The position numbers and the translations under genes are program-made. This document shows, in pieces, positions 2,310 to 63,998 of a stretch of DNA of 64,000 nt (positions are counted from its first letter, which is position 1; the number at the start of each line of letters is the position of its first letter). This DNA is from Candidatus Kaiserbacteria bacterium (lineage in GTDB: Bacteria; Patescibacteriota; Minisyncoccia; Phycocordibacterales; UBA2100), in contig JAQBQU010000019.1 in NCBI GenBank assembly GCA_028286865.1, positions 6,930 to 70,929 on the forward strand, read 5' to 3'. Below the pieces are notes generated by a model. The model was not told the DNA's origin, did no database searches, and saw only the letters and a list, made by a program, of their open reading frames with translations.

Positions 2310-3125
2310 ATGACTCTCGGACTCGTGTGCGGACTCTTCGGTCTCATTGCGGGAAGTTTTCTCAATGTCGTCATATTGCGCCACGGCGCCAAATCGCTCG
2401 ACGGCCGCTCTCAGTGCATGTCATGCGGTGTACAGCTCAAATGGTATGACCTCGTTCCGGTCATTTCCTGGGTCGCGCTGCGCGGAAAGTGCCGTGCGTG
2501 TCACAGCTCGATCTCGATCCAGTATCCGCTCGTTGAGCTTGCGAGCGGGGTGAGTTTTGTGCTCATCGGTACTTCGCAGGAGACATTCGGACTCGTCACG
2601 CCATTCTACTTTGCCGTGGCGGCTTTTATGATCGTGATCGCCGCCTATGACATCCGCCACACGATCATTCCCGATGAATGGGCGTATATGTTCGCGATAC
2701 TCGCTGCTGTCACCAGTATTATGGCGCCGCTATATGCCGGATCATTCCTCTTTTTGATCCTCGCGGGACCGCTCGCGGCACTTCCGCTGTTTCTGCTTTG
2801 GCTTGTCTCCGGCGGAAGCTGGATGGGGCTCGGCGACGCTAAGCTTGCACTCGGTATCGGTTGGCTCCTGGGGCCCGTGTACGGACCGGCCGCTATCATG
2901 GGAGCGTTCGTGATCGGGGCTGTCATCAGCGTCGGCATTCTTTTGCCGCTCCCGCATGCGCGCGCATATCTGCATCGGCTCCGCGCGGGAAAGGGGATAG
3001 CGCGGTTGAGAGGCGGACACACGGGACTTACAATGACGAGTGAGGTCGCGTTCGGTCCGTTCCTGGTGGCGAGCGCCTTTCTTACCTGGATGCTTCTTCT
3101 GTATCACGTCCCGCTTCCTTTGTGA
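2310..3125 (+). CDS. pilD: Prepilin peptidase (A24 family, PilD)
   Basis: N-terminal Cys motif (CMSCGVQL...CRAC) plus a polytopic membrane core, typical of peptidase A24. Confidence 0.85.
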   Translation: MTLGLVCGLFGLIAGSFLNVVILRHGAKSLDGRSQCMSCGVQLKWYDLVPVISWVALRGKCRACHSSISIQYPLVELASGVSFVLIGTSQETFGLVTPFYFAVAAFMIVIAAYDIRHTIIPDEWAYMFAILAAVTSIMAPLYAGSFLFLILAGPLAALPLFLLWLVSGGSWMGLGDAKLALGIGWLLGPVYGPAAIMGAFVIGAVISVGILLPLPHARAYLHRLRAGKGIARLRGGHTGLTMTSEVAFGPFLVASAFLTWMLLLYHVPLPL

Positions 3126-3130
3126 AAAAT

Positions 3131-3721
3131 ATGTTCAAAAAACTGAAAACCCGAAAATTGCATCGCGTGCGAAATGCGGGCTTCACACTTATTGAGCTGT
3201 TGGCGGTGACGGCCATCATGATGCTCATCACCGGGCTCGTGCTCGGCAACAATAATAAGTTCAACGGGACGATACTGCTGCAGAACGTCGCCTACGATAT
3301 CGCGCTCTCCGTGCGCGAAGCACAGGTGTACGGTATCTCGGTGCAAAATTTCAACGGGACGTTCACTGCGCCTTACGGCATGCACTTCCAGGTCAACGGA
3401 AACAACACTTCCATCTACATACTCTTTGCAGATGCCTCGATCGTGAACGGGACCTACGATAGCGGAGAGCTCGTGCAATCGACGACGCTCTCCGGCGGCT
3501 ATCGCATCAATGATCTGTGCGCGACCCCGCCGAGCGGAACCGAAGTATGCGGGCTCACATCGCTCGACGTCACATTCGTGCGTCCCGAGCCGGACGCATA
3601 CATACGCACATCGGCATACAGCGGCCTCAACAGTTCGGCGCGCATCCGTATCACATCTACGTCCGGCAGCTCGCGTGACGTCGTGATCGGGGCCAACGGC
3701 CAGATCTCGGTGCAACAATAA
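3131..3721 (+). CDS. Pseudopilin / minor pilin (prepilin-type N-terminal domain)
   Basis: RNAGFTLIELLAVTAIMMLI motif. The ORF track starts at GTG 3122, overlapping the pilD stop. I prefer the ATG at 3131. Confidence 0.7.
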   Translation: MFKKLKTRKLHRVRNAGFTLIELLAVTAIMMLITGLVLGNNNKFNGTILLQNVAYDIALSVREAQVYGISVQNFNGTFTAPYGMHFQVNGNNTSIYILFADASIVNGTYDSGELVQSTTLSGGYRINDLCATPPSGTEVCGLTSLDVTFVRPEPDAYIRTSAYSGLNSSARIRITSTSGSSRDVVIGANGQISVQQ

Positions 3722-3722
3722 T

Positions 3723-4319
3723 ATGAATACTTCGTTCAAACAGAAAAGATCGCGCACGGGTCAGTCGGGCTTCACACTGATCGAAATGATCGTGGCGGTG
3801 GGTCTCTTTGCAGTCGTCATGATGGTCTCGGTAGGGGCACTTCTCTCGTTGGTGACTGCCAACAGAAAAGCACAGGGGCTTCAGTCGGTGATGAACAACA
3901 TGAACGTGGCGATCGACGGCATGGTACGCGCGGTACGCATGGGAAGCATCTATCATTGCGGCGAGGGCACATATACGATAGCGGCCGACTGTTCATCGGG
4001 CAATTCGGTGCTTGCGTTCGAGCCGTATCACACGGGTCCGACCGTGCCGCCGTGGATCTACTGGTATGCGACCGATTCCAAGGGTGTCGGCCGCTTGTAT
4101 AAATCCGAAGACGGAACCATCGCGAGCGGACTTCCCATCACCGCTCCCGAGGTCAGTATCGATTCGGTAAAATTCTACGTGCTGGGCTCTGCGCGCGGGG
4201 ACACGCAGCAGCCGAAGGTCCTCATCATCATCAAGGGAAGCGCCGGCAATACACAGCTCATCACGACCACCACCTTCCACATTCAGGCCACCGCGGTCCA
4301 ACGTATACTCGATCTATGA
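3723..4319 (+). CDS. Pseudopilin / minor pilin
   Basis: GQSGFTLIEMIVAVGLFAVV prepilin motif, located in the pilus operon. Confidence 0.7.
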   Translation: MNTSFKQKRSRTGQSGFTLIEMIVAVGLFAVVMMVSVGALLSLVTANRKAQGLQSVMNNMNVAIDGMVRAVRMGSIYHCGEGTYTIAADCSSGNSVLAFEPYHTGPTVPPWIYWYATDSKGVGRLYKSEDGTIASGLPITAPEVSIDSVKFYVLGSARGDTQQPKVLIIIKGSAGNTQLITTTTFHIQATAVQRILDL

Positions 4320-9944: not shown

Positions 9945-10016
9945 AGCGGGGTGGAGCAGTAGTAGCTCGCAAGGCTCATAACCTTGAGGTCGCGGGTGCA
10001 ATTCCCGCCCCCGCAA
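9945..10016 (+). tRNA. tRNA-Met (CAT), initiator-like, with atypical D and T loops
   Basis: Hand-folded cloverleaf AGCGGGG-TG-GAGC-AGTAGTA-GCTC-G-CAAGG-CTCATAA-CCTTG-AGGTC-GCGGG-TGCAATT-CCCGC-CCCCGCA-A. Close to E. coli tRNA-fMet in the acceptor and D stem, with a 1:72 mismatch. No encoded CCA. Confidence 0.7.
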
Positions 10017-10025
10017 CACGAAAGC

Positions 10026-10049
10026 AAAACACCCCGACCGGGGTGTTTT
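10026..10049. terminator. Bidirectional hairpin terminator
   Basis: AAAACACCCCG/CGGGGTGTTTT hairpin with an A run on one side and a T run on the other. Lies between the tRNA-Met and a convergent small ORF. Confidence 0.65.
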
Positions 10050-10059
10050 GCACAGGGGG

Positions 10060-10242
10060 TCAGCTCTCGGAAATGATGCCGATCACGGCGCCTGCTATCG
10101 AAGTGAGGCCCACGAAGATGAACGAAATGATGAGCAGCTTCCAGTCCCAAGCGAAGATGAGTCGTCCGACCGCATACAGAAAGAAGACGACCGAAATAGG
10201 CCAGAAGACAAAGGAATTAACGGCAAGTATTTTTTCCCACAT
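10060..10242 (-). CDS. Small two-TM membrane protein (hypothetical)
   Basis: 60 aa and strongly hydrophobic. It starts 1 nt after the minus-strand tRNA(CAT) and ends at the bidirectional terminator. Confidence 0.45.
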   Translation of the reverse strand: MWEKILAVNSFVFWPISVVFFLYAVGRLIFAWDWKLLIISFIFVGLTSIAGAVIGIISES

Positions 10243-10243
10243 G

Positions 10244-10317
10244 TGTCGAGGGTGGGACTCGAACCCACGACCTAGCGCTTATGAAACGCTCGCTCTAACC
10301 GGCTGAGCTACCCCGAC
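10244..10317 (-). tRNA. tRNA with CAT anticodon (elongator Met or Ile2; cannot be distinguished by eye)
   Basis: Reverse complement folds as GTCGGGG-TA-GCTC-AGCCGGTTA-GAGC-G-AGCGT-TTCATAA-GCGCT-AGGTC-GTGGG-TTCGAGT-CCCAC-CCTCGAC-A. Confidence 0.8.
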
Positions 10318-10363
10318 AACTGAGCAACGAAAGAGGAAGCTTGCTTGCTCTTTCTGCGAAGGC

Positions 10364-10396
10364 CGTCGGTGAAAGCGCTTTGCGCTTACCCCGACG
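10364..10396 (-). repeat. Nested hairpin element about 45 nt upstream of the minus-strand tRNA(CAT); homolog of the 14168 and 14231 elements
   Basis: Outer stem CGTCGG/CCGACG, inner stem AAGCGC/GCGCTT. The flanking leader cgcagaaagagcaagcaagc matches cgcagaaaggcaagtagaag at 14201-14220. Confidence 0.55.
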
Positions 10397-10508
10397 ATAC
10401 GGAGACAATATCGCATTTTCGGCCTTTTGCGAATAGGGGATACATCTTTTACGAAAGCCCACTCGCAAAAAAGCGAAAAATACGGTATTCTCACGCAGTT
10501 GCTCACTT

Positions 10509-10582
10509 GCGGGTGTAGCTCAATTGGTTAGAGCACTCCCCTGTCACGGGAGAGGCTGCGGGTTCGAGTCCCGTCACTCGCG
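10509..10582 (+). tRNA. tRNA-Asp (GTC)
   Basis: GCGGGTG-TA-GCTC-AATTGGTTA-GAGC-A-CTCCC-CTGTCAC-GGGAG-AGGCT-GCGGG-TTCGAGT-CCCGT-CACTCGC-G. Confidence 0.85.
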
Positions 10583-10635
10583 CAAACGCAAAATAAGACC
10601 TCGATTACTCACCAGGGCCGTACTATACTAAGCGG

Positions 10636-14304: not shown

Positions 14305-14380
14305 GCCGACGTAGCTCAGTTGGTAGAGCACGTCCTTGGTAAGGACGAGGTCATCGGTTCAATCCCGATCGTCGGCTCCA
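14305..14380 (+). tRNA. tRNA-Thr (GGT), CCA encoded
   Basis: GCCGACG-TA-GCTC-AGTTGGTA-GAGC-A-CGTCC-TTGGTAA-GGACG-AGGTC-ATCGG-TTCAATC-CCGAT-CGTCGGC-T-CCA. Confidence 0.9.
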
Positions 14381-14994
14381 TGAAAAATCTCGCCCGTGGG
14401 CGCGGATATATTCTAAGCTTCACACTCGCATATATTGCGCTCTTTAGCGCCGGATTCATGTATGGCGGCAATTATGAATTCGCCATCTACACCGTTGTAA
14501 TGGTCGCCGCAACCTTGCTCGTGGCGCTCATCGCTCGCGATACTGAGATCCCCAACGGGTTCCTGTGGGCGCTCTCCGGGATGGGAATACTGCATATGCT
14601 TGGCGGCGGCGTACATATTCATGGCGAACGATTATACGCCTATCGTATCTGGGATCTGTACGAAAGCGGCGATCCGGGGCTCGTCGTACTTAAATATGAT
14701 CAGTTCATCCATTTGCTCGGCTATGCGGTCATTGCGGTTGCGATACATTACGTACTTCGCCGAACGATGCCGGGGCTCGATGCGATCGGTCGTGCGGTAC
14801 TTTCTATTCTTGCCGCTATGGCGATCGGATCGATCAACGAACTCGCAGAATTCTCGGCGGTGCTTCTGTTGCCGCGCACGGGAGTGGGGGATTATTTCAA
14901 TACGATGCTCGACCTCTCGTTCAATACGCTGGGCGCCGTGGCCGGGGTCGTCTTATACGAATCGTGGGTGCGTTTGAAAAAGTACTCCGAATAG
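14380..14994 (+). CDS. Hypothetical polytopic membrane protein
   Basis: The internal ATG at 14380 overlaps the last A of the tRNA's CCA. The upstream 35 codons of the track ORF (GTG 14275) are the translated tRNA gene. About 5 TM segments. Confidence 0.55.
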   Translation: MKNLARGRGYILSFTLAYIALFSAGFMYGGNYEFAIYTVVMVAATLLVALIARDTEIPNGFLWALSGMGILHMLGGGVHIHGERLYAYRIWDLYESGDPGLVVLKYDQFIHLLGYAVIAVAIHYVLRRTMPGLDAIGRAVLSILAAMAIGSINELAEFSAVLLLPRTGVGDYFNTMLDLSFNTLGAVAGVVLYESWVRLKKYSE

Positions 14995-15016
14995 CGTAGG
15001 ATTTGCAGCGTTAGTC

Positions 15017-15089
15017 GCCACCTTAGCTCAGCTGGTAGAGCAACTCATTCGTAATGAGTAGGTCCCCGGTTCAAATCCGGGAGGTGGCT
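15017..15089 (+). tRNA. tRNA-Thr (CGT)
   Basis: GCCACCT-TA-GCTC-AGCTGGTA-GAGC-A-ACTCA-TTCGTAA-TGAGT-AGGTC-CCCGG-TTCAAAT-CCGGG-AGGTGGC-T. Confidence 0.9.
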
Positions 15090-15110
15090 CACGAACGAAA
15101 TGAGTGAATT

Positions 15111-41212: not shown

Positions 41213-41227
41213 GCGTATACTGTGCAC

Positions 41228-41812
41228 ATGAGACGCTCCCGTCCGATACGTATTGTTTCCTTCATAATTCTGATCATCCTCGTCGGTACCTATTTCTTCG
41301 TTACGCGCCGTGAAGAACAAACGGTAGTGACCGGCACCGCGATCGCCGCTACCGCTACTCCATACGTCGAAGGCAGCTTTGTGAAGCCGGCGGACTCGGT
41401 ACTGCGCGCGACGCTCACCCCGGAAATGTACGATGTCACCCAACGAAACGGCACTGAAGCCCCGTTCCATAATGAATACTGGGACAATCACGAAGAAGGG
41501 ATCTACGTCGATATCGTCTCCGGGGAGCCGCTCTTTTCTTCCAAGGATAAATATGATTCCGGCACCGGCTGGCCTTCTTTCACCAAGCCGCTGGTCGCCG
41601 CAAATATAAAGACCGTCGCCGATAATTCGCTCAGCGACGAGCGCACCGAAGTGCGCTCGGTACATGCTGATTCGCATCTTGGTCACGTATTCAACGACGG
41701 TCCCGCGCCGCTCGGGCTTCGCTATTGTATGAATTCCGCCGCAATGCGGTTCGTTCCGAAGAACGACCTTGTCGCACAAGGATACGGAGAATTTCTTTCC
41801 CTGTTCCAATAA
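41228..41812 (+). CDS. msrB: Peptide-methionine (R)-S-oxide reductase MsrB with an N-terminal membrane anchor
   Basis: [17 protein letters not shown] and RYCMNS motifs. N-terminal [24 protein letters not shown] + 6 nt + ATG 41228. Confidence 0.85.
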
Positions 41813-60607: not shown

Positions 60608-62395
60608 ATGGAAATTCGTAACATCGCTATCATCGCGCACGTCGACCACGGAAAGACGACCCTTACCGATGCCATTCTCAAGCAGACCGGCGTCGGCGAA
60701 GAGGGCGTATCTATGGACTCCAACGCCCTCGAACTCGAGCGCGGCATCACCATTTATTCCAAGAATGCCGCCATTTTCTATAAAGACACCAAGATCAACA
60801 TCGTCGACACTCCCGGTCACGCCGACTTCGGTTCTGAGGTCGAGCGCGTGCTCCGCTCTATCGACTCGGTACTGCTCGTCGTCGACGCCCAGGAGGGCCC
60901 GATGCCGCAGACGCGATTCGTGCTCAAGAAGTCCCTCGAACTCGGCCTTCGTCCTATCGTCGTCATCAACAAGATCGACAAGCCGGCCGCCGACCCGAAG
61001 CGCGCAGAAGAGCAGGTGCTCGAACTCTTCCTTGAGCTCGGGGCCTCAGACCTTCAGGCGGAATTCCCGGTCGTCTACGCTATCGGCAAGCAGGGTATCG
61101 CCAAGCGCAAGCTCGATGATGAATCCACAGACCTCTTTCCGCTCCTCGATGTCGTGCTTGAGCATGTGAAGCCTGCTTCGGAAGGCCACTCGGCCACCGA
61201 GCCGCTTCGCGCGCAGCCGTTCAACCTCGGATACGACAACTTCCTCGGCCGTCTCGCTATCACCCGCATCTACGACGGTACGCTCAAGATGGGCGACACC
61301 GTATTTGTGAAGCAGCCTTCCGGCGAGACCCGCCCGGGCAAGATCACCAAGATGCACACCTTCCGCGGACTCAAGAAAGAGGAGGCGACCGAGGTGCAGG
61401 CAGGTGACATCGTGCTCATCGCCGGACTCTCGGACATTTTCATCGGAGAGACCATCACCAACGACCAGAACGTCGAACCGCTTCCTGCCATCGCTATCGA
61501 TGAACCGACCATCACATTGAACTTCCTCGTCAACAGCTCGCCGTTCGGCGGACGCGAAGGCAAATTCGTCACGACCCGCCAGATACGCGACCGCCTCGAA
61601 AAAGAGCTCGAGATCAACGTGGGCCTCAAAGTAGATTTCTCCGGAGGCGACACCTTCAAGGTCTCAGGCCGCGGCGAACTCCACATCGCGATCCTCCTCG
61701 AGAACATGCGCCGCGAAGGATTCGAACTCCAGGTCTCGCAGCCGCAGGTCATCATCCGTGAAGAGAACGGTGTGAAGATGGAACCGTACGAGGAGGTCAT
61801 CGTTGATACGCCGACCGAGTACCAGGGCCCGATCATCGAGCGCTTGGGTACCCGTAAATTCGTCATGAAAGACATGAAGGTCCACGACAACACGGTGCGC
61901 CTCATCTTCGAGGGCCCGACCCGCGGACTCTTGGGCTACAAAAATCAATTCGTGCTCGACACCAAGGGCGAGGGAATTCTCTCGAGCCGCGTCATCGGAT
62001 TCAAGGAACACGCAGGCGAGATCAAGAAGAAGCAGGTAGGCTCGATGATCTCGATGGCCTCGGGCAAAGCGCTCGGCTTCTCGCTGTGGAATCTCCAGGA
62101 TCGCGGCGTCTTGTACATCAAGCCTGCTACGGAAGTGTACGAAGGCATGGTCATCGGCAATACATCCAAGGGCGAAGAGATGATGGTGAACCCTACAAAA
62201 GGTAAACAGCTCACCAACATGCGCTCGAAGGGTACCGACGAAGCGCTCAACCTTGTCCCACCATTTGAGATCACGATCGAACGCGGCCTTGAGGTCATGG
62301 GCGAAGACGAATATCTCGAGATCACTCCGGTCTCCGTGCGTATGCGAAAGCAGTTCCTCACCGAGAACGACCGCATCAAGGCTCGCCGCAACTAA
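60608..62395 (+). CDS. typA: Translational GTPase TypA/BipA
   Basis: [30 protein letters not shown] and the BipA-type C-terminal domain. Confidence 0.95.
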
Positions 62396-62418
62396 CCCCG
62401 ATCATTCAGTGTTTGATC

Positions 62419-62447
62419 CATGAGGCGCGACTTTGTCGCGCCTCATG
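62419..62447 (+). terminator. Hairpin after typA
   Basis: CATGAGGCGCGAC-ttt-GTCGCGCCTCATG, a 13-bp stem with no clear T run. Confidence 0.55.
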
Positions 62448-62479
62448 ATGTTGTAATCCACACTTGCTATACTTATTGC

Positions 62480-62878
62480 ATGACAAACAAACCAATGCCC
62501 GAGACCGAGGAACAGTGGCAGCAGATGCTCACTCCCGAGCAGTATAAAATTCTGCGTGAACGGGGAACGGAAGCGCCATTTAGCGGCGAATACGTCCATG
62601 AGAAAGCCGACGGCACGTATGCGTGCGCCGCGTGCGGCAATCCGCTTTTCGATTCAAGCACCAAATTCGATTCAGGTTCGGGCTGGCCGTCTTTCGATAG
62701 CGCGCTCCCCGGAGCGGTCGAGACGCACCGCGACAGCGATCATGGGATGGAGCGCACCGAGATCACGTGCGCCCGCTGCGGTTCGCACCTCGGCCATGTC
62801 TTCGACGACGGCCCGAAAGAGACCACCGGCAAACGCTACTGTATCAATTCAGTCTGTTTAGATTTAGAGGAAAAGTAG
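62480..62878 (+). CDS. msrB: Peptide-methionine (R)-S-oxide reductase MsrB (cytoplasmic, Zn-type CxxC pairs)
   Basis: CAACGNPLF...GSGWPSF...[16 protein letters not shown]...RYCINS. TATACT + 6 nt + ATG 62480 (the track starts at 62420). Confidence 0.9.
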
Positions 62879-62941
62879 CGTAGAGATAGTGCGACCGAGC
62901 AAGCGTGCGAGGAAGTGCCAAAGGCCAGTAGGCCGTGGCGT

Positions 62942-62977
62942 ATAAACTCCGTGTGTCTCGATCTGGAAGAGAAGTAA
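62942..62977 (+). pseudogene. Second copy of the msrB 3' end, in frame and synonymously recoded ([11 protein letters not shown])
   Basis: ATAAACTCCGTGTGTCTCGATCTGGAAGAGAAGTAA encodes the same 11 aa + stop as 62843-62878 (ATCAATTCAGTCTGTTTAGATTTAGAGGAAAAGTAG), exactly 99 nt downstream. Confidence 0.7.
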
Positions 62978-62984
62978 AAAAGAT

Positions 62985-63008
62985 ACGGCGGCCTCGCGAG
63001 GCCGCCGT
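62985..63008. terminator. Bidirectional terminator
   Basis: ACGGCGGCC-tcgcga-GGCCGCCGT, with an A run upstream that reads as a T run for the minus-strand gene. Confidence 0.75.
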
Positions 63009-63023
63009 CAGTCTTTCATCCGA

Positions 63024-63389
63024 TCATGTCGATCTCGCCCGCACGTCCTCGAAGTCGAGATTGTAGACCGCGCAGAGACGGCGTACATAGCGGGTCACCA
63101 GGCTCTTGTCGCTCCTGAGCGCGAGCGCACCGGTCTTCTCGAGGATGTCCGCGGTCGCGACGCCGCGTCCTATAGCTGCAGCGCGGGGCCCGGGGTTCAC
63201 GGTGCGATATTTCATGACGAGCAGGAATGCCTGCCGAAGCGCAGTTGTATAGAGGCCGGACTCCGGTGCACGGAGCGTATCGACCGTGGTATTACCGAGA
63301 GCCGCCAGTGTATGCATTGCTGCGTGGAGATCCGGCGGAGGTGTCTTGCTGCGCTCCGGCGCAGCGGCCGTGGGAGCGCGCGAAACCAT
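63024..63389 (-). CDS. Hypothetical protein (121 aa)
   Basis: AGGAG lies 7 nt before the Met at 63389. The longer track ORFs (to 63503, and the 63212..63757 frame) lack start signals. No family recognised. Confidence 0.4.
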   Translation of the reverse strand: MVSRAPTAAAPERSKTPPPDLHAAMHTLAALGNTTVDTLRAPESGLYTTALRQAFLLVMKYRTVNPGPRAAAIGRGVATADILEKTGALALRSDKSLVTRYVRRLCAVYNLDFEDVRARST

Positions 63390-63509
63390 GGTATTACTCC
63401 TGCCACATGAGGGGGTCTTCCGCCATAGTACCCATCCGCCCGTTTTGTGCCAGCGGCATGCGCCAACATGAGCCGTGCTAGCATGGGCGTATACCAGTAG
63501 CACATCTCT

Positions 63510-63998
63510 ATGAATACAAAAACTATCTCAGCGATCATCGTTGTAATCGTCCTTATTGCGCTGGCATACTTCTTCTTGGGAGTGAAGCGCACGGTGCCTG
63601 AAACCGCTACGACCGGTACTTCGACGGAAGCGACGACGACCATAAAGGGGAAAATGACCGCATCTGCACTCGCGGGCGCCCGCGACCCGAAGATGGCAGG
63701 CACGTGGCAAGCGACTGACGATGCCAAAGCGACGCGCACATTCTCAATGGACGGCACGGTGACCGACCGCTACGCGGGCGATGCATCAGCGACCGACACC
63801 GGCACGTGGGAGGTCGTCGATCCGACGAAAGAGGTGATCGGGGTCCCGGCGGAAAGCGTCGCGGGGATGACGGTCCTTCGCATGAATTTCGAGCACTCCG
63901 GTGCATTCTTCTACACGGTGCTTTCTCTCACCGACAACGGTCTGGAGCTGAGCTATCTCGGTCGCGGCAATACGCTCTCATACACCAAGGTGAAATAA
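63510..63998 (+). CDS. Membrane-anchored hypothetical protein
   Basis: N-terminal TM (ISAIIVVIVLIALAYFFLG) and a T-rich linker. TAGCAC + 6 nt + ATG. Confidence 0.5.
   Translation: MNTKTISAIIVVIVLIALAYFFLGVKRTVPETATTGTSTEATTTIKGKMTASALAGARDPKMAGTWQATDDAKATRTFSMDGTVTDRYAGDASATDTGTWEVVDPTKEVIGVPAESVAGMTVLRMNFEHSGAFFYTVLSLTDNGLELSYLGRGNTLSYTKVK

Follow-up and report, generated by a model that had tools for sequence, protein, structure and literature searches.

A second copy of the msrB gene end behind the working msrB of a Candidatus Kaiserbacteria genome, possibly the stub of a diverged msrB

The last 11 codons of msrB occur twice, one set behind the other, in a 64-kb stretch of DNA from a Candidatus Kaiserbacteria MAG (the whole stretch is hereafter called the window), and the short spacer between the two copies is homologous to an N-terminal insert found in other msrB genes. 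We tentatively interpret nucleotides 62879-62977, directly behind the working gene, as a miniature stub left by another, diverged msrB, with a start region joined to the last 11 codons. The elements of the locus are these:

62480-62878, forward strand: functional msrB, 132 codons plus TAG
62843-62878, forward strand: E1, the last 11 codons presumed to be expressed, plus TAG; atypical codon usage
62879-62888, forward strand: linker CGTAGAGATA, 10 nt, from the E1 stop to X
62889-62941, forward strand: module X, type A, with a GTG start; homologous to the msrB N-terminal insert
62889-62945, forward strand: 18-codon ORF from the GTG of X (VRPSKRARKCQRPVGRGV, then a stop), out of frame with E2
62891-62916, forward strand: hairpin 1 of X, arms GCGACCGAGC and GCGAGGAAGT, with tandem G.A in the stem
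62917-62939, forward strand: hairpin 2 of X, outer stem GCCA/TGGC, inner stem GGCC-AGTA-GGCC
62942-62977, forward strand: E2, the second copy of the last 11 codons, presumed silent, plus TAA; same peptide as E1
62985-63008, no strand assigned: bidirectional intrinsic terminator, a perfect 12+12 palindrome

The two ends read ATC AAT TCA GTC TGT TTA GAT TTA GAG GAA AAG TAG (E1) and ATA AAC TCC GTG TGT CTC GAT CTG GAA GAG AAG TAA (E2). An earlier note on this DNA had reported that they encode an identical peptide at 62843-62878 and 62942-62977, that 8 of the 11 codons differ, all synonymously, and that the copies lie 99 nt apart in the same frame with 21 stop-free codons (RRDSATEQACEEVPKASRPWR) between them; we confirmed each of these points. 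The 10 nucleotide changes comprise 8 at third positions and 2 at the first position of Leu codons. A six-frame search of the window for INSVCLDLE, allowing up to 3 mismatches, returned the E1 and E2 sites only, and this result, taken with the recurrence of the same pair in independent assemblies of relatives, argues that the duplication is not a chance resemblance. Nor is it an assembly artefact, a candidate that we rejected on finding the layout in independent ENA, JGI, Logan and NCBI assemblies. The longest run common to E1 and E2 is 5 nt (AAGTA), the bases preceding the two copies are unlike (CTACTGT for E1, TGGCGT for E2), and E2 has no start codon of its own that is kept across lineages.

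The earlier claim that E1 uses atypical codons is right for this genome: TTA makes up 3% of the Leu codons in the 59 long ORFs of the window, E1 contains two of them, and a CAI-like score puts E1 (0.515) at the 7th percentile of 11-codon windows and E2 (0.705) at the 46th. As a general rule it fails, since in a related locus, L161, it is E2 that has TTA. We also considered a diversity-generating retroelement and rejected it, because the E1/E2 substitutions involve all four bases and are not adenine-specific; no reverse transcriptase was found among the neighbouring genes tested by Pfam. Long-range pairing of E1 with E2 (RNAalifold) was likewise discarded: the stems derive from the quasi-palindromic L-D-L-E codons, and the covariation term is unfavourable.

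The product of the working gene matches Pfam SelR (E 7.7e-53, residues 17-130), with the catalytic Cys encoded by the TGT at 62840-62842, and is 100% identical to P0001, which carries the name msrB of Candidatus Kaiserbacteria; exact-protein look-ups gave no record for the window MsrB, whether started at 62480 or 62420, or for P0001. The NCBI annotation places the start at the second ATG, 62495. The first ATG is preceded, 8 nt upstream, by a -10-like TATACT, and the upstream gene is typA. On the other side, neither neighbouring ORF, 63027-63392(-) or 63510-63995(+), has a Pfam match. The strong terminator that the earlier note placed after E2 is indeed there, as a perfect 12+12 palindrome flanked by an A-tract, supplied by the last bases of E2, and a T-tract; it also serves the convergent ORF 63027-63392(-). 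In L168, a relative with a single msrB end, that end is followed by a closely similar terminator hairpin. A second MsrB paralogue in the window (41222-41812) was considered as a donor for gene conversion and rejected, its C-terminus being different.

A key observation is that X is homologous to an in-frame insert of 13-16 codons (M-R/L-PSDERGSTKASRPHV) near the N-terminus of full-length msrB genes in other Paceibacterota. These 5' copies of X (L006, L088, L089 and L176) lie in frame inside msrB and come without E1. A profile built from the 5' copies alone matches 62890-62935 of the window (nhmmer, E 2.4e-3) as well as the spacers of L124 (E 1.2e-7) and L186 (E 1.7e-6); in the reverse direction the E values range from 1.3e-6 to 1.6e-11, the best being that of L006 (1.6e-11). 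Outside msrB, nhmmer found no other match to X below E 0.1 in about 0.98 Mb. A second variant of the spacer, type B (L086, L115), is collinear with the type B N-terminus of L088 (p = 0.004 and 0.02), and that alignment extends to codons past the insert (CCYCGATCC, encoding PRS). In 62879-62977 the 3' part encodes a peptide identical to the MsrB C-terminus, and the 5' part resembles the insert near the N-terminus in msrB genes of other lineages. In all loci examined, X sits 5' or 3' of msrB and never both, and type A and type B are each found at both sites. Compared with the msrB 5' end of its own genome, the spacer gives no significant match (p = 0.12), and in several lineages its best alignments there fall at the N-terminal PExEE codons. 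Protein word searches with the peptides encoded by X returned nothing, though known positives were likewise not returned. The spacer may derive from the N-terminal insert, or the insert from the spacer.

The spacer, which occurs once in the window, is 63 nt long there and 43-63 nt over the lineages; the linker is 2-5 nt in other type A lineages, and the NTG codon that opens X begins 2-10 nt past the E1 stop. This first codon is ATG in the 5' genes, GTG in the window, TTG in L186 and CTG in L161, L082 and L124. Its frame, as read from the sequences, is out of frame with E2 in L161 as in the window, and it enters E2 in L186, L082 and L124, making mini-ORFs of 27-28 codons; by eye, the reading frame of the type B insert enters E2 in L115 too. 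Hairpin 1 has six pairs that are invariant in 8/8 copies, a result that neither supports nor refutes pairing, and a loop that varies in length and sequence (AAGCGT in the window; GNRA-like, GAGA and GCGA, in L082 and L124). The inner helix of hairpin 2 is paired in 90.6% of cells. Two of its pairs are changed on both sides, in L082 only (GCGC/GCGC), covariation that 5 of 500 shuffles also reached, and in its outer stem an A-U pair of the window is G-C in L161. The region 62830-63015, terminator included, folds better than shuffled controls (z = -3.9). A cmscan of 62300-63200 against Rfam 15 at E <= 10 gave no match within 62879-62941; its matches elsewhere in that region were weak chance ones, on the terminator and within msrB. 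We found no fold common to type A and type B X and, by eye, no terminal inverted repeats of X. Imperfect 10-nt direct repeats (CGGCAGATGC / CCGCACGTGC) border the 5' copies, at a place where msrB genes that lack the insert have a single AGGCCCATGC; the 3' copies also have these flanks, so the flanks may be part of module X itself. An integron attC site, a hammerhead and group II domain V were dropped because their core motifs are absent, and a SECIS element because the catalytic residue is Cys and there is no in-frame TGA. A scan of a viral collection with the hairpin-1 pattern yielded one chance match, within a coding region (L169).

The duplicated-end layout occurs in at least seven Paceibacterota msrB lineages (the window, L161, L186, L082, L124, and the type B L086 and L115), with offsets between E1 and E2 of 99, 90, 89, 92, 89, 92 and 79 nt; E1 and E2 share a frame only in the window and L161. 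Given this breadth, the insertion proposed in the earlier note, of a foreign 99-bp segment, is not a recent event private to this genome. Nor is the spacer the residue of an element body, being homologous with the N-terminal insert, and once the spacer is seen as an msrB N-terminal homologue, the unit 62879-62977 stands out as much as 62843-62941. Likewise, the idea of an element that targets the gene 3' end finds no recombinase and copies that share a run of at most 5 nt, and a larger element between the copies, which relatives might have carried, is absent from about 100 related loci. Empty sites, on the other hand, do exist among relatives: L168, L181 and L182 are single-ended, with the typA-msrB synteny kept (L168 at 93% identity). 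Within the group at >=87% identity, three loci are duplicated (window, L161, L186) and five are single (L168, L177, L181, L182, L185). An IS200/IS605 Y1 transposase gene near the msrB of L182 was followed up and set aside, as it shows no related hairpins and no tie to X.

E1 and E2 are 58-75% identical within a genome, which is not above the identity between genomes; there is therefore no gene conversion, and the earlier view that both ends come from diverged coding copies, not from a recent duplication in situ, holds. Among the E2 copies of the window, L161, L186 and L115, 5-10 of 33 nt differ, all synonymously (P <= 3e-4 per pair). The earlier note had proposed that non-synonymous change in the second copy would mark a neutral remnant, and here the lineages divide: L082 (VNAVCLDLEQK), L124 and L086 carry non-synonymous or stop changes in E2, and the window, L161, L186 and L115 none. 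Between the window, L161 and L186, X differs by 11-19%, as against 49-57% at the 4-fold sites of msrB, and the flanking intergenic DNA is unalignable; the 5' copies of X are only a few nt apart from each other. Two indels, one of 8 nt and one of 1 nt, separate the window spacer from that of L161 and jointly preserve the frame from E1 to E2. E1 is not conserved jointly with the spacer: its synonymous sites are saturated where X is 81-89% identical, and the notion that E1 and X travel as a unit is not supported. When L161 is compared with single-copy relatives, 46% of codons differ in E2, 77% in E1 and 48% in the gene body. We also dropped the notion that the E2 of the window is orthologous to the E1 of L161, because unrelated lineages are equally close (3-5 differences); among 93 such short ends (33-36 nt) unrelated ones are as close, and trees of them thus have no resolving power.

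We hypothesize that these features record the remains of two msrB copies that diverged under protein-level selection, were then juxtaposed, and of which one was cut down. The second copy could have been a tandem paralogue, or an allele recombined in from another lineage. What would be left of it, directly behind the working msrB, is a start-type codon (GTG 62889) with some 17 codons' worth of the N-terminal region of an N-terminally extended msrB variant, joined to the last 11 codons and stop, with about 100 middle codons missing. We propose that the two ends encode the same peptide in different codons because the copies they came from were by then diverged. We infer that the stub arose when the copies were juxtaposed and the middle of one was then deleted; the working protein presumably ends at the TAG, and the stub would contribute nothing to making MsrB. 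The conserved hairpin part of the stub may have persisted as an RNA element at the 3' end, and the end of E2 as a component of the common terminator. Several observations argue for such a stub: X is homologous to, and located only at, msrB; it lies exclusively 5' or 3', and type B spacers are collinear with the N-terminus of L088; E2 decays in three lineages and takes all three frames relative to E1; and the mini-ORFs that run into E2 in L186, L082 and L124 (and by eye in L115) are what an in-frame internal deletion is expected to leave. Furthermore, full-length tandem msrB pairs exist (L035, L118, L150), all of them in other phyla. Against it, neither a full-length tandem pair nor a less reduced intermediate was found in the about 100 Patescibacteria loci that we fetched; a dead stub should be less conserved than X, given its 11-19% divergence against 49-57% at 4-fold sites; and synonymous-only change of E2 in four lineages is unlike a silent relic shared by descent. 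The spacer, moreover, is not significantly similar either to its own msrB 5' end (p = 0.12) or to the 130 nt before E1 (p = 0.10), and the type of X is discordant with the msrB tree: L088, of type B, and L089, of type A, are near-identical in gene and flanks, so some horizontal exchange of the module is needed.

The main rival, which we consider rather unlikely, holds that a miniature cassette, consisting of E1, its stop and X, enters msrB right after the catalytic Cys codon, restores the gene end much as e14 or phage 21 does at icd, and pushes the host's own end downstream, and that it is repeatedly lost and regained through recombination or a recombinase acting in trans; module X could also sit in frame after msrB codon 5. 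Periodic re-expression of the host end would keep E2 intact, and a need for X in mobility together with reuse of E2 would leave E2 with synonymous changes only, as is seen in four lineages, and X conserved at the nucleotide level, as it is. The patchiness among close relatives (three duplicated against five single-ended at >=87% identity), the incongruence of X type with host genes (L088 and L089) and the presence of both types at both sites fit as well, as do the atypical E1 codons of the window and the native-like E2, but not E1, of L161. Yet the 43-63 nt between the copies hold no recombinase or other gene, the neighbouring ORFs have no Pfam match, the junctions have no identical core, and no locus examined contains a larger body. 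The saturation of E1 next to an X that is 81-89% identical argues that the two are not a young travelling unit, X comes without E1 in the 5' copies, and E2 decays in three lineages. A bolder reading, which we regard as unlikely, is that the locus shows either an active 'mini-msrB' cassette of 90-100 nt that lacks a recombinase, or in X a new RNA that acts in cis from either end of the mRNA. Such a cassette would bring along both a start (NTG plus X) and an end (E1 plus stop) of its target gene, would restore msrB wherever it recombined, whether past codon 5 or past the catalytic Cys codon, and through its repeated loss and regain would leave the displaced host end usable; either form would account for nucleotide-level conservation of X alongside coding-type evolution of the two gene ends. 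In a simpler form, X would be an RNA (or DNA) element acting in cis on msrB from either transcript end, and the doubled gene end would be a by-product of its movement from 5' to 3'. In favour of this, there is one X per msrB at one end or the other, the arms of hairpin 1 are invariant in coding and non-coding contexts, the 5' copies are a few nt apart against roughly 50% at 4-fold sites in three other lineages, and 62830-63015, with its terminator, folds well (z = -3.9). We nevertheless think this quite unlikely: hairpin 1 has no covariation, compensatory changes in hairpin 2 are confined to one lineage, the spacer has no Rfam match at E <= 10, types A and B do not share a fold, and the evolution of E2 is left unaccounted for.

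Another explanation, very unlikely in our view, would have E2 translated and under selection, either at the tail of a long isoform made by recoding (stop read-through in the window and L161, frameshifting in the others) or at the end of a coupled small ORF whose start is the NTG of X. The zero non-synonymous changes in four lineages are what it predicts, and the frame is stop-free across the spacer in 7/7 lineages (chance 0.45-0.73 each, product about 0.02); the frame-keeping indels between the window and L161, and the L186 mini-ORF with a TTG start 2 nt past the stop, also fit. However, no single mechanism fits: relative to E1, the frame of E2 is 0, +1 or +2, and relative to the NTG of X the trio of the window, L161 and L186 already shows all three frames. 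Three lineages would have to start at CTG, the middle peptide is unconserved, E2 is degraded in L082, L124 and L086, and the E1 stop is TAA in 5/7 lineages, with a T after it in L161 and L186. The earlier note had raised TAG read-through and a suppressor tRNA(CUA). With offsets of 79-99 nt, and with TAG an ordinary stop that ends 15 of the 59 long ORFs, read-through fails as a general explanation, and none of the 6 tRNAs in the window is such a suppressor. Least probable of all, and already disfavoured, is an old tandem duplication in situ of the last ~100 nt of msrB whose upstream part decayed to the spacer, which the earlier note had listed as an in-frame duplication. A weak likeness by eye of EEVPKASRPWR to a 13-residue peptide, and a second tblastn match in L115 that extends to 22 residues, speak for it. 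In every lineage, however, the spacer shows no significant similarity to the 130 nt before E1 (p 0.10-0.87); it is homologous to the N-terminal insert instead, and uniform decay would not leave 11 perfect codons beside an unrecognisable upstream part.

The locus can be set beside several known systems. At icd of E. coli, a conserved housekeeping gene, the incoming copy of the last codons carried by e14 or phage 21 ends the gene, and the original end survives further downstream as a fragment, icdC; the two ends differ mostly synonymously, and loss of the insert rejoins icd to the displaced end (PMC13626634, and Hill et al. 1989 as cited in it). The msrB loci of the window and six other lineages are similar in that the 3' end is doubled around an insert and that close relatives (L168, L181, L182) have unoccupied sites. 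They differ in that 63 nt, and not about 15 kb, separate the copies, that there is no integrase or identical att core, that the spacer is itself msrB-derived or msrB-specific, and that the layout spans lineages with saturated synonymous sites. Pseudogene stubs left by tandem duplication or replacement are comparable as incomplete copies behind a working gene that decay in some lineages; unlike them, the msrB stub keeps the two extreme ends alone (about 17 + 11 codons), exists in two variants and is conserved far above neutral DNA. Rickettsia palindromic elements are short hairpin-forming inserts that lie in frame within coding regions and are translated (PMC10969869). X in L006, L088, L089 and L176 is, like these elements and intragenic MITEs, in frame and translated; unlike the Rickettsia elements, it is single per locus, found in msrB alone (0.98 Mb searched) and without clear terminal inverted repeats, and its layout duplicates gene ends, which they do not. 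With programmed stop-codon read-through or translational bypass, as in T4 gene 60, the locus shares a stop, a structured gap and a coding-like repeat of the peptide before the gap. In the msrB lineages, however, neither frame nor gap length is conserved, no matching take-off and landing codons are common to them, and MsrB is already complete at the first stop.

If the segment is no more than a stub, it neatly documents the duplication or replacement of a gene in the very small genomes of Patescibacteria. If the conservation of X reflects selection, it would point to a very small gene-restoring mobile unit that lives in an essential-type gene without splicing or, alternatively, to an as yet unrecognised RNA element associated with a repair gene for oxidative stress; under the mobile-unit or RNA reading, it is unusual for a silent copy to undergo synonymous changes only. 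For annotation, the homology also carries a warning, since the N-terminal 'extension' assigned by gene callers to some MsrB proteins and the post-gene 'intergenic' DNA of others are one and the same sequence.

The msrB gene of the window ends twice, exactly as the earlier note had described: its last 11 codons and stop (E1) recur downstream, encoding the same peptide with different codons (E2).

60608-62395: typA, upstream of msrB, with its own terminator hairpin between typA and msrB
62480-62878: msrB, downstream of typA
62843-62878: E1, ATC AAT TCA GTC TGT TTA GAT TTA GAG GAA AAG TAG
62942-62977: E2, 99 nt downstream of E1, ATA AAC TCC GTG TGT CTC GAT CTG GAA GAG AAG TAA

The two ends specify one 11-residue peptide plus a stop through eight unlike codons, all of them (8/8) synonymous, and no stop lies within the 21 codons that separate them. 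Searched in six frames, the whole window has this peptide at E1 and E2 only, and the 63-nt spacer occurs a single time; the doubled msrB end is genuine and well outside what chance could produce. The repeated segment starts immediately 3' of the catalytic Cys codon (RYC, then INS) and falls within the SelR domain, for which the Pfam span is residues 17-130 of 132. The atypical codons claimed for E1 are borne out: TTA, 3% of Leu codons in the 59 long ORFs of the window, is used twice in E1, and a CAI-like score puts E1 at the 7th percentile and E2 at the 46th. The strong terminator reported after E2 is likewise present, as a perfect 12+12 palindrome (62985-63008) with an A-tract 5' and a T-tract 3'; it terminates in both directions, serving msrB and the convergent ORF 63027-63392(-). 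Its A-tract is formed by the final bases of E2.

The window's MsrB is 100% identical to P0001, an msrB-named protein of a Candidatus Kaiserbacteria MAG, and its closest relatives belong to Kaiserbacteria, Paceibacterota and other Patescibacteria MAGs. We looked in any frame of 188 msrB locus sequences (window included) for a repeat of the C-terminal peptide, which occurs in six further lineages (loci L161-L167, L186, L082, L124, L115 and L086 from other genomes or metagenomes). L161-L167 are seven independent contigs of one lineage, with MsrB 90% identical to the window's; that of L186 is 88% identical, and its typA-msrB synteny is as in the window. Close relatives with a single msrB end, which the earlier note had suggested looking for, do exist (L168, L181, L182-184, L177 and L185): L168 MsrB is 93% identical, with a terminator hairpin much like the window's directly after its sole stop, and L181 and L182-184 keep the typA-msrB synteny. 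The larger element asked about between the copies does not appear, nothing longer than 63 nt separating them at any locus.

The E1-to-E2 offsets in the seven lineages (99, 90, 89, 92, 89, 92 and 79 nt) place E2 in each of the three frames with respect to E1, so that read-through of the E1 stop, proposed earlier as a TAG-dependent isoform, cannot account for the arrangement in general; furthermore, the E1 stop is TAA in 5/7 lineages. TAG is an ordinary stop in this genome, since it ends 15 of the window's 59 long ORFs (TAA ends 25 and TGA 19) and none of the six window tRNAs carries the CUA anticodon of the suppressor that had been suggested. We assign a low likelihood to translation of E2 by recoding or from a small ORF. 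The E2 frame is stop-free across the spacer in 7/7 lineages (chance 0.45-0.73 each, joint ~0.02 if lineages are independent), and indels of 8 and 1 nt between the window and L161 jointly keep E2 in frame with E1, but no one translation mechanism fits every lineage.

The spacer, whose core is module X (62889-62941 in the window), is of two types: A (window, L161, L186, L082, L124) and B (L115, L086). Type A consists of an invariant core, TGCGACCGAGC-loop-GCGAGGAAGT, and then a second small hairpin. The same 50 nt are found in the 5' end of full-length msrB in L006, L089 and L176, as an in-frame insert of ~16 codons (M-R/L-PSDERGSTKASRPHV) between MTKR and PExEExW, and the insert appears as a gene-caller N-terminal extension in the proteins P0017, P0088 and P0118. 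A profile from the three 5' copies alone matches the 3' spacers (L124, E 1.2e-7; L186, 1.7e-6; L082, 1.4e-4; window, 2.4e-3), and one from the 3' spacers alone matches the 5' copies (L006, E 1.6e-11; L176, 1.3e-7; L089, 1.3e-6), with no further match to X below E 0.1 in 0.98 Mb. By these non-circular profile tests, the type A spacer is homologous to the msrB N-terminal insert. The type B spacers of L115 and L086 strongly resemble each other and can be aligned collinearly to the N-terminal insert of type B in L088/L170 (MTKRS-TRPDERDSVGR-VPRS...; p = 0.004 and 0.02), the L115 alignment running past the insert into the codons PRS. Types A and B each occur at both 5' and 3' sites, and the two locations are mutually exclusive per gene at all loci seen.

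The first codon of X is NTG in every copy (ATG in the 5' genes; TTG in L186; GTG at 62889 in the window; CTG in L161, L082 and L124) and lies 2-10 nt past the E1 stop. The frame that it opens continues into E2 in L186, L082 and L124, giving mini-ORFs of 27-28 codons, and in L115 the reading frame of the type B insert likewise enters E2. It does not reach E2 in the window and L161, because the loop is 1 nt longer; an 18-codon ORF (62889-62945; VRPSKRARKCQRPVGRGV, then a stop) is left in the window after this frame break. At one 5' site, L088 (2950-3024) and L089 (2963-3023), which have near-identical msrB (~95% identity by direct comparison of protein sequences) and identical upstream DNA, carry unlike in-frame N-terminal inserts in the same place, of 39 nt and 48 nt, respectively. 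The insert is bounded by imperfect 10-nt direct repeats (CGGCAGATGC / CCGCACGTGC), and insert-free genes have a single copy (AGGCCCATGC). We also observed that the 3' two-thirds of X align to a junction joining two insert-free msrB genes head to tail (GAGGAAAAGTAA joined to ATGACCAAAAGGCCCATGCC, against GAGGAAGTACTAAGGCCAGTAGGCCGCACGTGCC; p ~0.02, uncorrected for multiple tests), a weak lead that, if the alignment is real, would make X itself the scar of tandem msrB copies.

We hypothesize, with modest confidence, that 62879-62977 is best explained as what is left of a second msrB copy, reduced to a miniature stub. The 99 nt that follow the TAG would comprise a codon of start type, the region next to the start in the extended msrB variant and the final 11 codons plus stop, ~100 middle codons being missing; the two copies would have diverged while both were functional, giving unlike codons at the two ends. 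This reading also accounts for the confinement of the spacer to msrB, for the start-like codon just past the first stop and for the in-frame mini-ORF in four lineages. The central claim of the earlier note, the joining of two gene ends with separate evolutionary histories, is supported. Full-length tandem msrB pairs are known outside this group, in other phyla (L035, a Flavobacteriales MAG, 3007-3785; metagenome contigs L118, 1624-2415, and L150, 3001-3833), with gaps of ~30-75 nt. In three lineages E2 bears the marks of a relic: VNAVCLDLEQK in L082, a 10-residue variant and then a stop in L124, and an altered 11-residue peptide in L086. That the last ~100 nt were simply duplicated in place, the in-frame alternative raised earlier, is not supported, as the stretch of 130 nt upstream of E1 has no significant similarity to the spacers (p 0.10-0.87). 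The doubled end is related to known kinds of arrangement, namely gene remnants and gene-end duplication at insertion sites; what is unusual is a silent gene end evolving like coding sequence beside a strongly conserved msrB-specific module.

This pattern of conservation is at odds with a dead stub. Among the window, L161 and L186, X differs by 11-19%, against 49-57% at 4-fold degenerate sites of the msrB body, and the intergenic DNA flanking both sides is unalignable; X is too well conserved. The arms of hairpin 1 are identical in 8/8 type A copies, translated (5') or untranslated (3'), and none of its six pairs varies; in hairpin 2, 90.6% of cells are paired, with compensatory changes in one lineage only. 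Covariation lends thin support to base pairing in X, and Rfam has no match for it. E2, which evolves like coding sequence, differs at 5-10/33 nt among the window, L161, L186 and L115, always synonymously (P <= 3e-4 per pair if positions are random), and its frame varies among these loci relative to both E1 and the NTG of X. Together with X types incongruent with the msrB tree (type B in L088, type A in L089), these features suggest turnover or selection. A small reversible cassette that carries its own replacement gene end and restores msrB would yield all three and, as the one model that explains them, is a serious rival. It has a documented precedent in prophage e14: icd runs into the prophage, the displaced icdC fragment lies at the far end, and excision joins icd back to icdC (PMC13626634). 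However, there is no recombinase, no core common to the junctions (the longest identical run between copies is 5 nt) and no larger body at any locus. The reading as a recent foreign 99-bp insertion by a gene-end-targeting element holds only in part. E1 synonymous sites are saturated between lineages in which X is 81-89% identical, and E1 plus X is therefore not a young travelling unit. In L161, codons unlike those of single-copy relatives make up 46% of E2, 77% of E1 and 48% of the gene body, which speaks mildly for E2 being the native end; the same comparison does not separate the ends in the window (60% vs 67%). Allele families drawn from the 33-nt ends were discarded, unrelated lineages coming as near as 3 differences among 93 ends.

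Several further features were noted. In L115 (3444-3482), msrA (GCFWC motif) has its ATG directly against the E2 stop, and E2 holds GAGGA just upstream of that ATG; here the second copy occupies the native operon position and may provide the ribosome-binding site of msrA. An IS200/IS605-type Y1 transposase gene (PF01797; 2426-2896) lies ~540 nt downstream of the single-copy msrB of L182, from a related MAG, in a region with no hairpins akin to the spacer module. A -10-like box (TATACT, GATACAAT, GATATAGT, GATACAGT) is positioned 7-8 nt before the msrB ATG in the window (62462-62482) and in the same place in L082, L161, L168 and L088/L089, and msrB of this clade has no Shine-Dalgarno sequence; its mRNAs are probably leaderless. 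The window also encodes a second, divergent MsrB paralogue at 41222-41812 (+), with 47% identity over 112 residues, an N-terminal hydrophobic segment, no CxxC zinc pairs and an unlike C-terminus; the protein is probably membrane-anchored or exported. Finally, a 640-nt stretch (9945-10583) holds a tRNA-Asp gene and two tRNA-Met genes, the latter on opposite strands, and two tRNA-Thr genes lie at 14305-15090.
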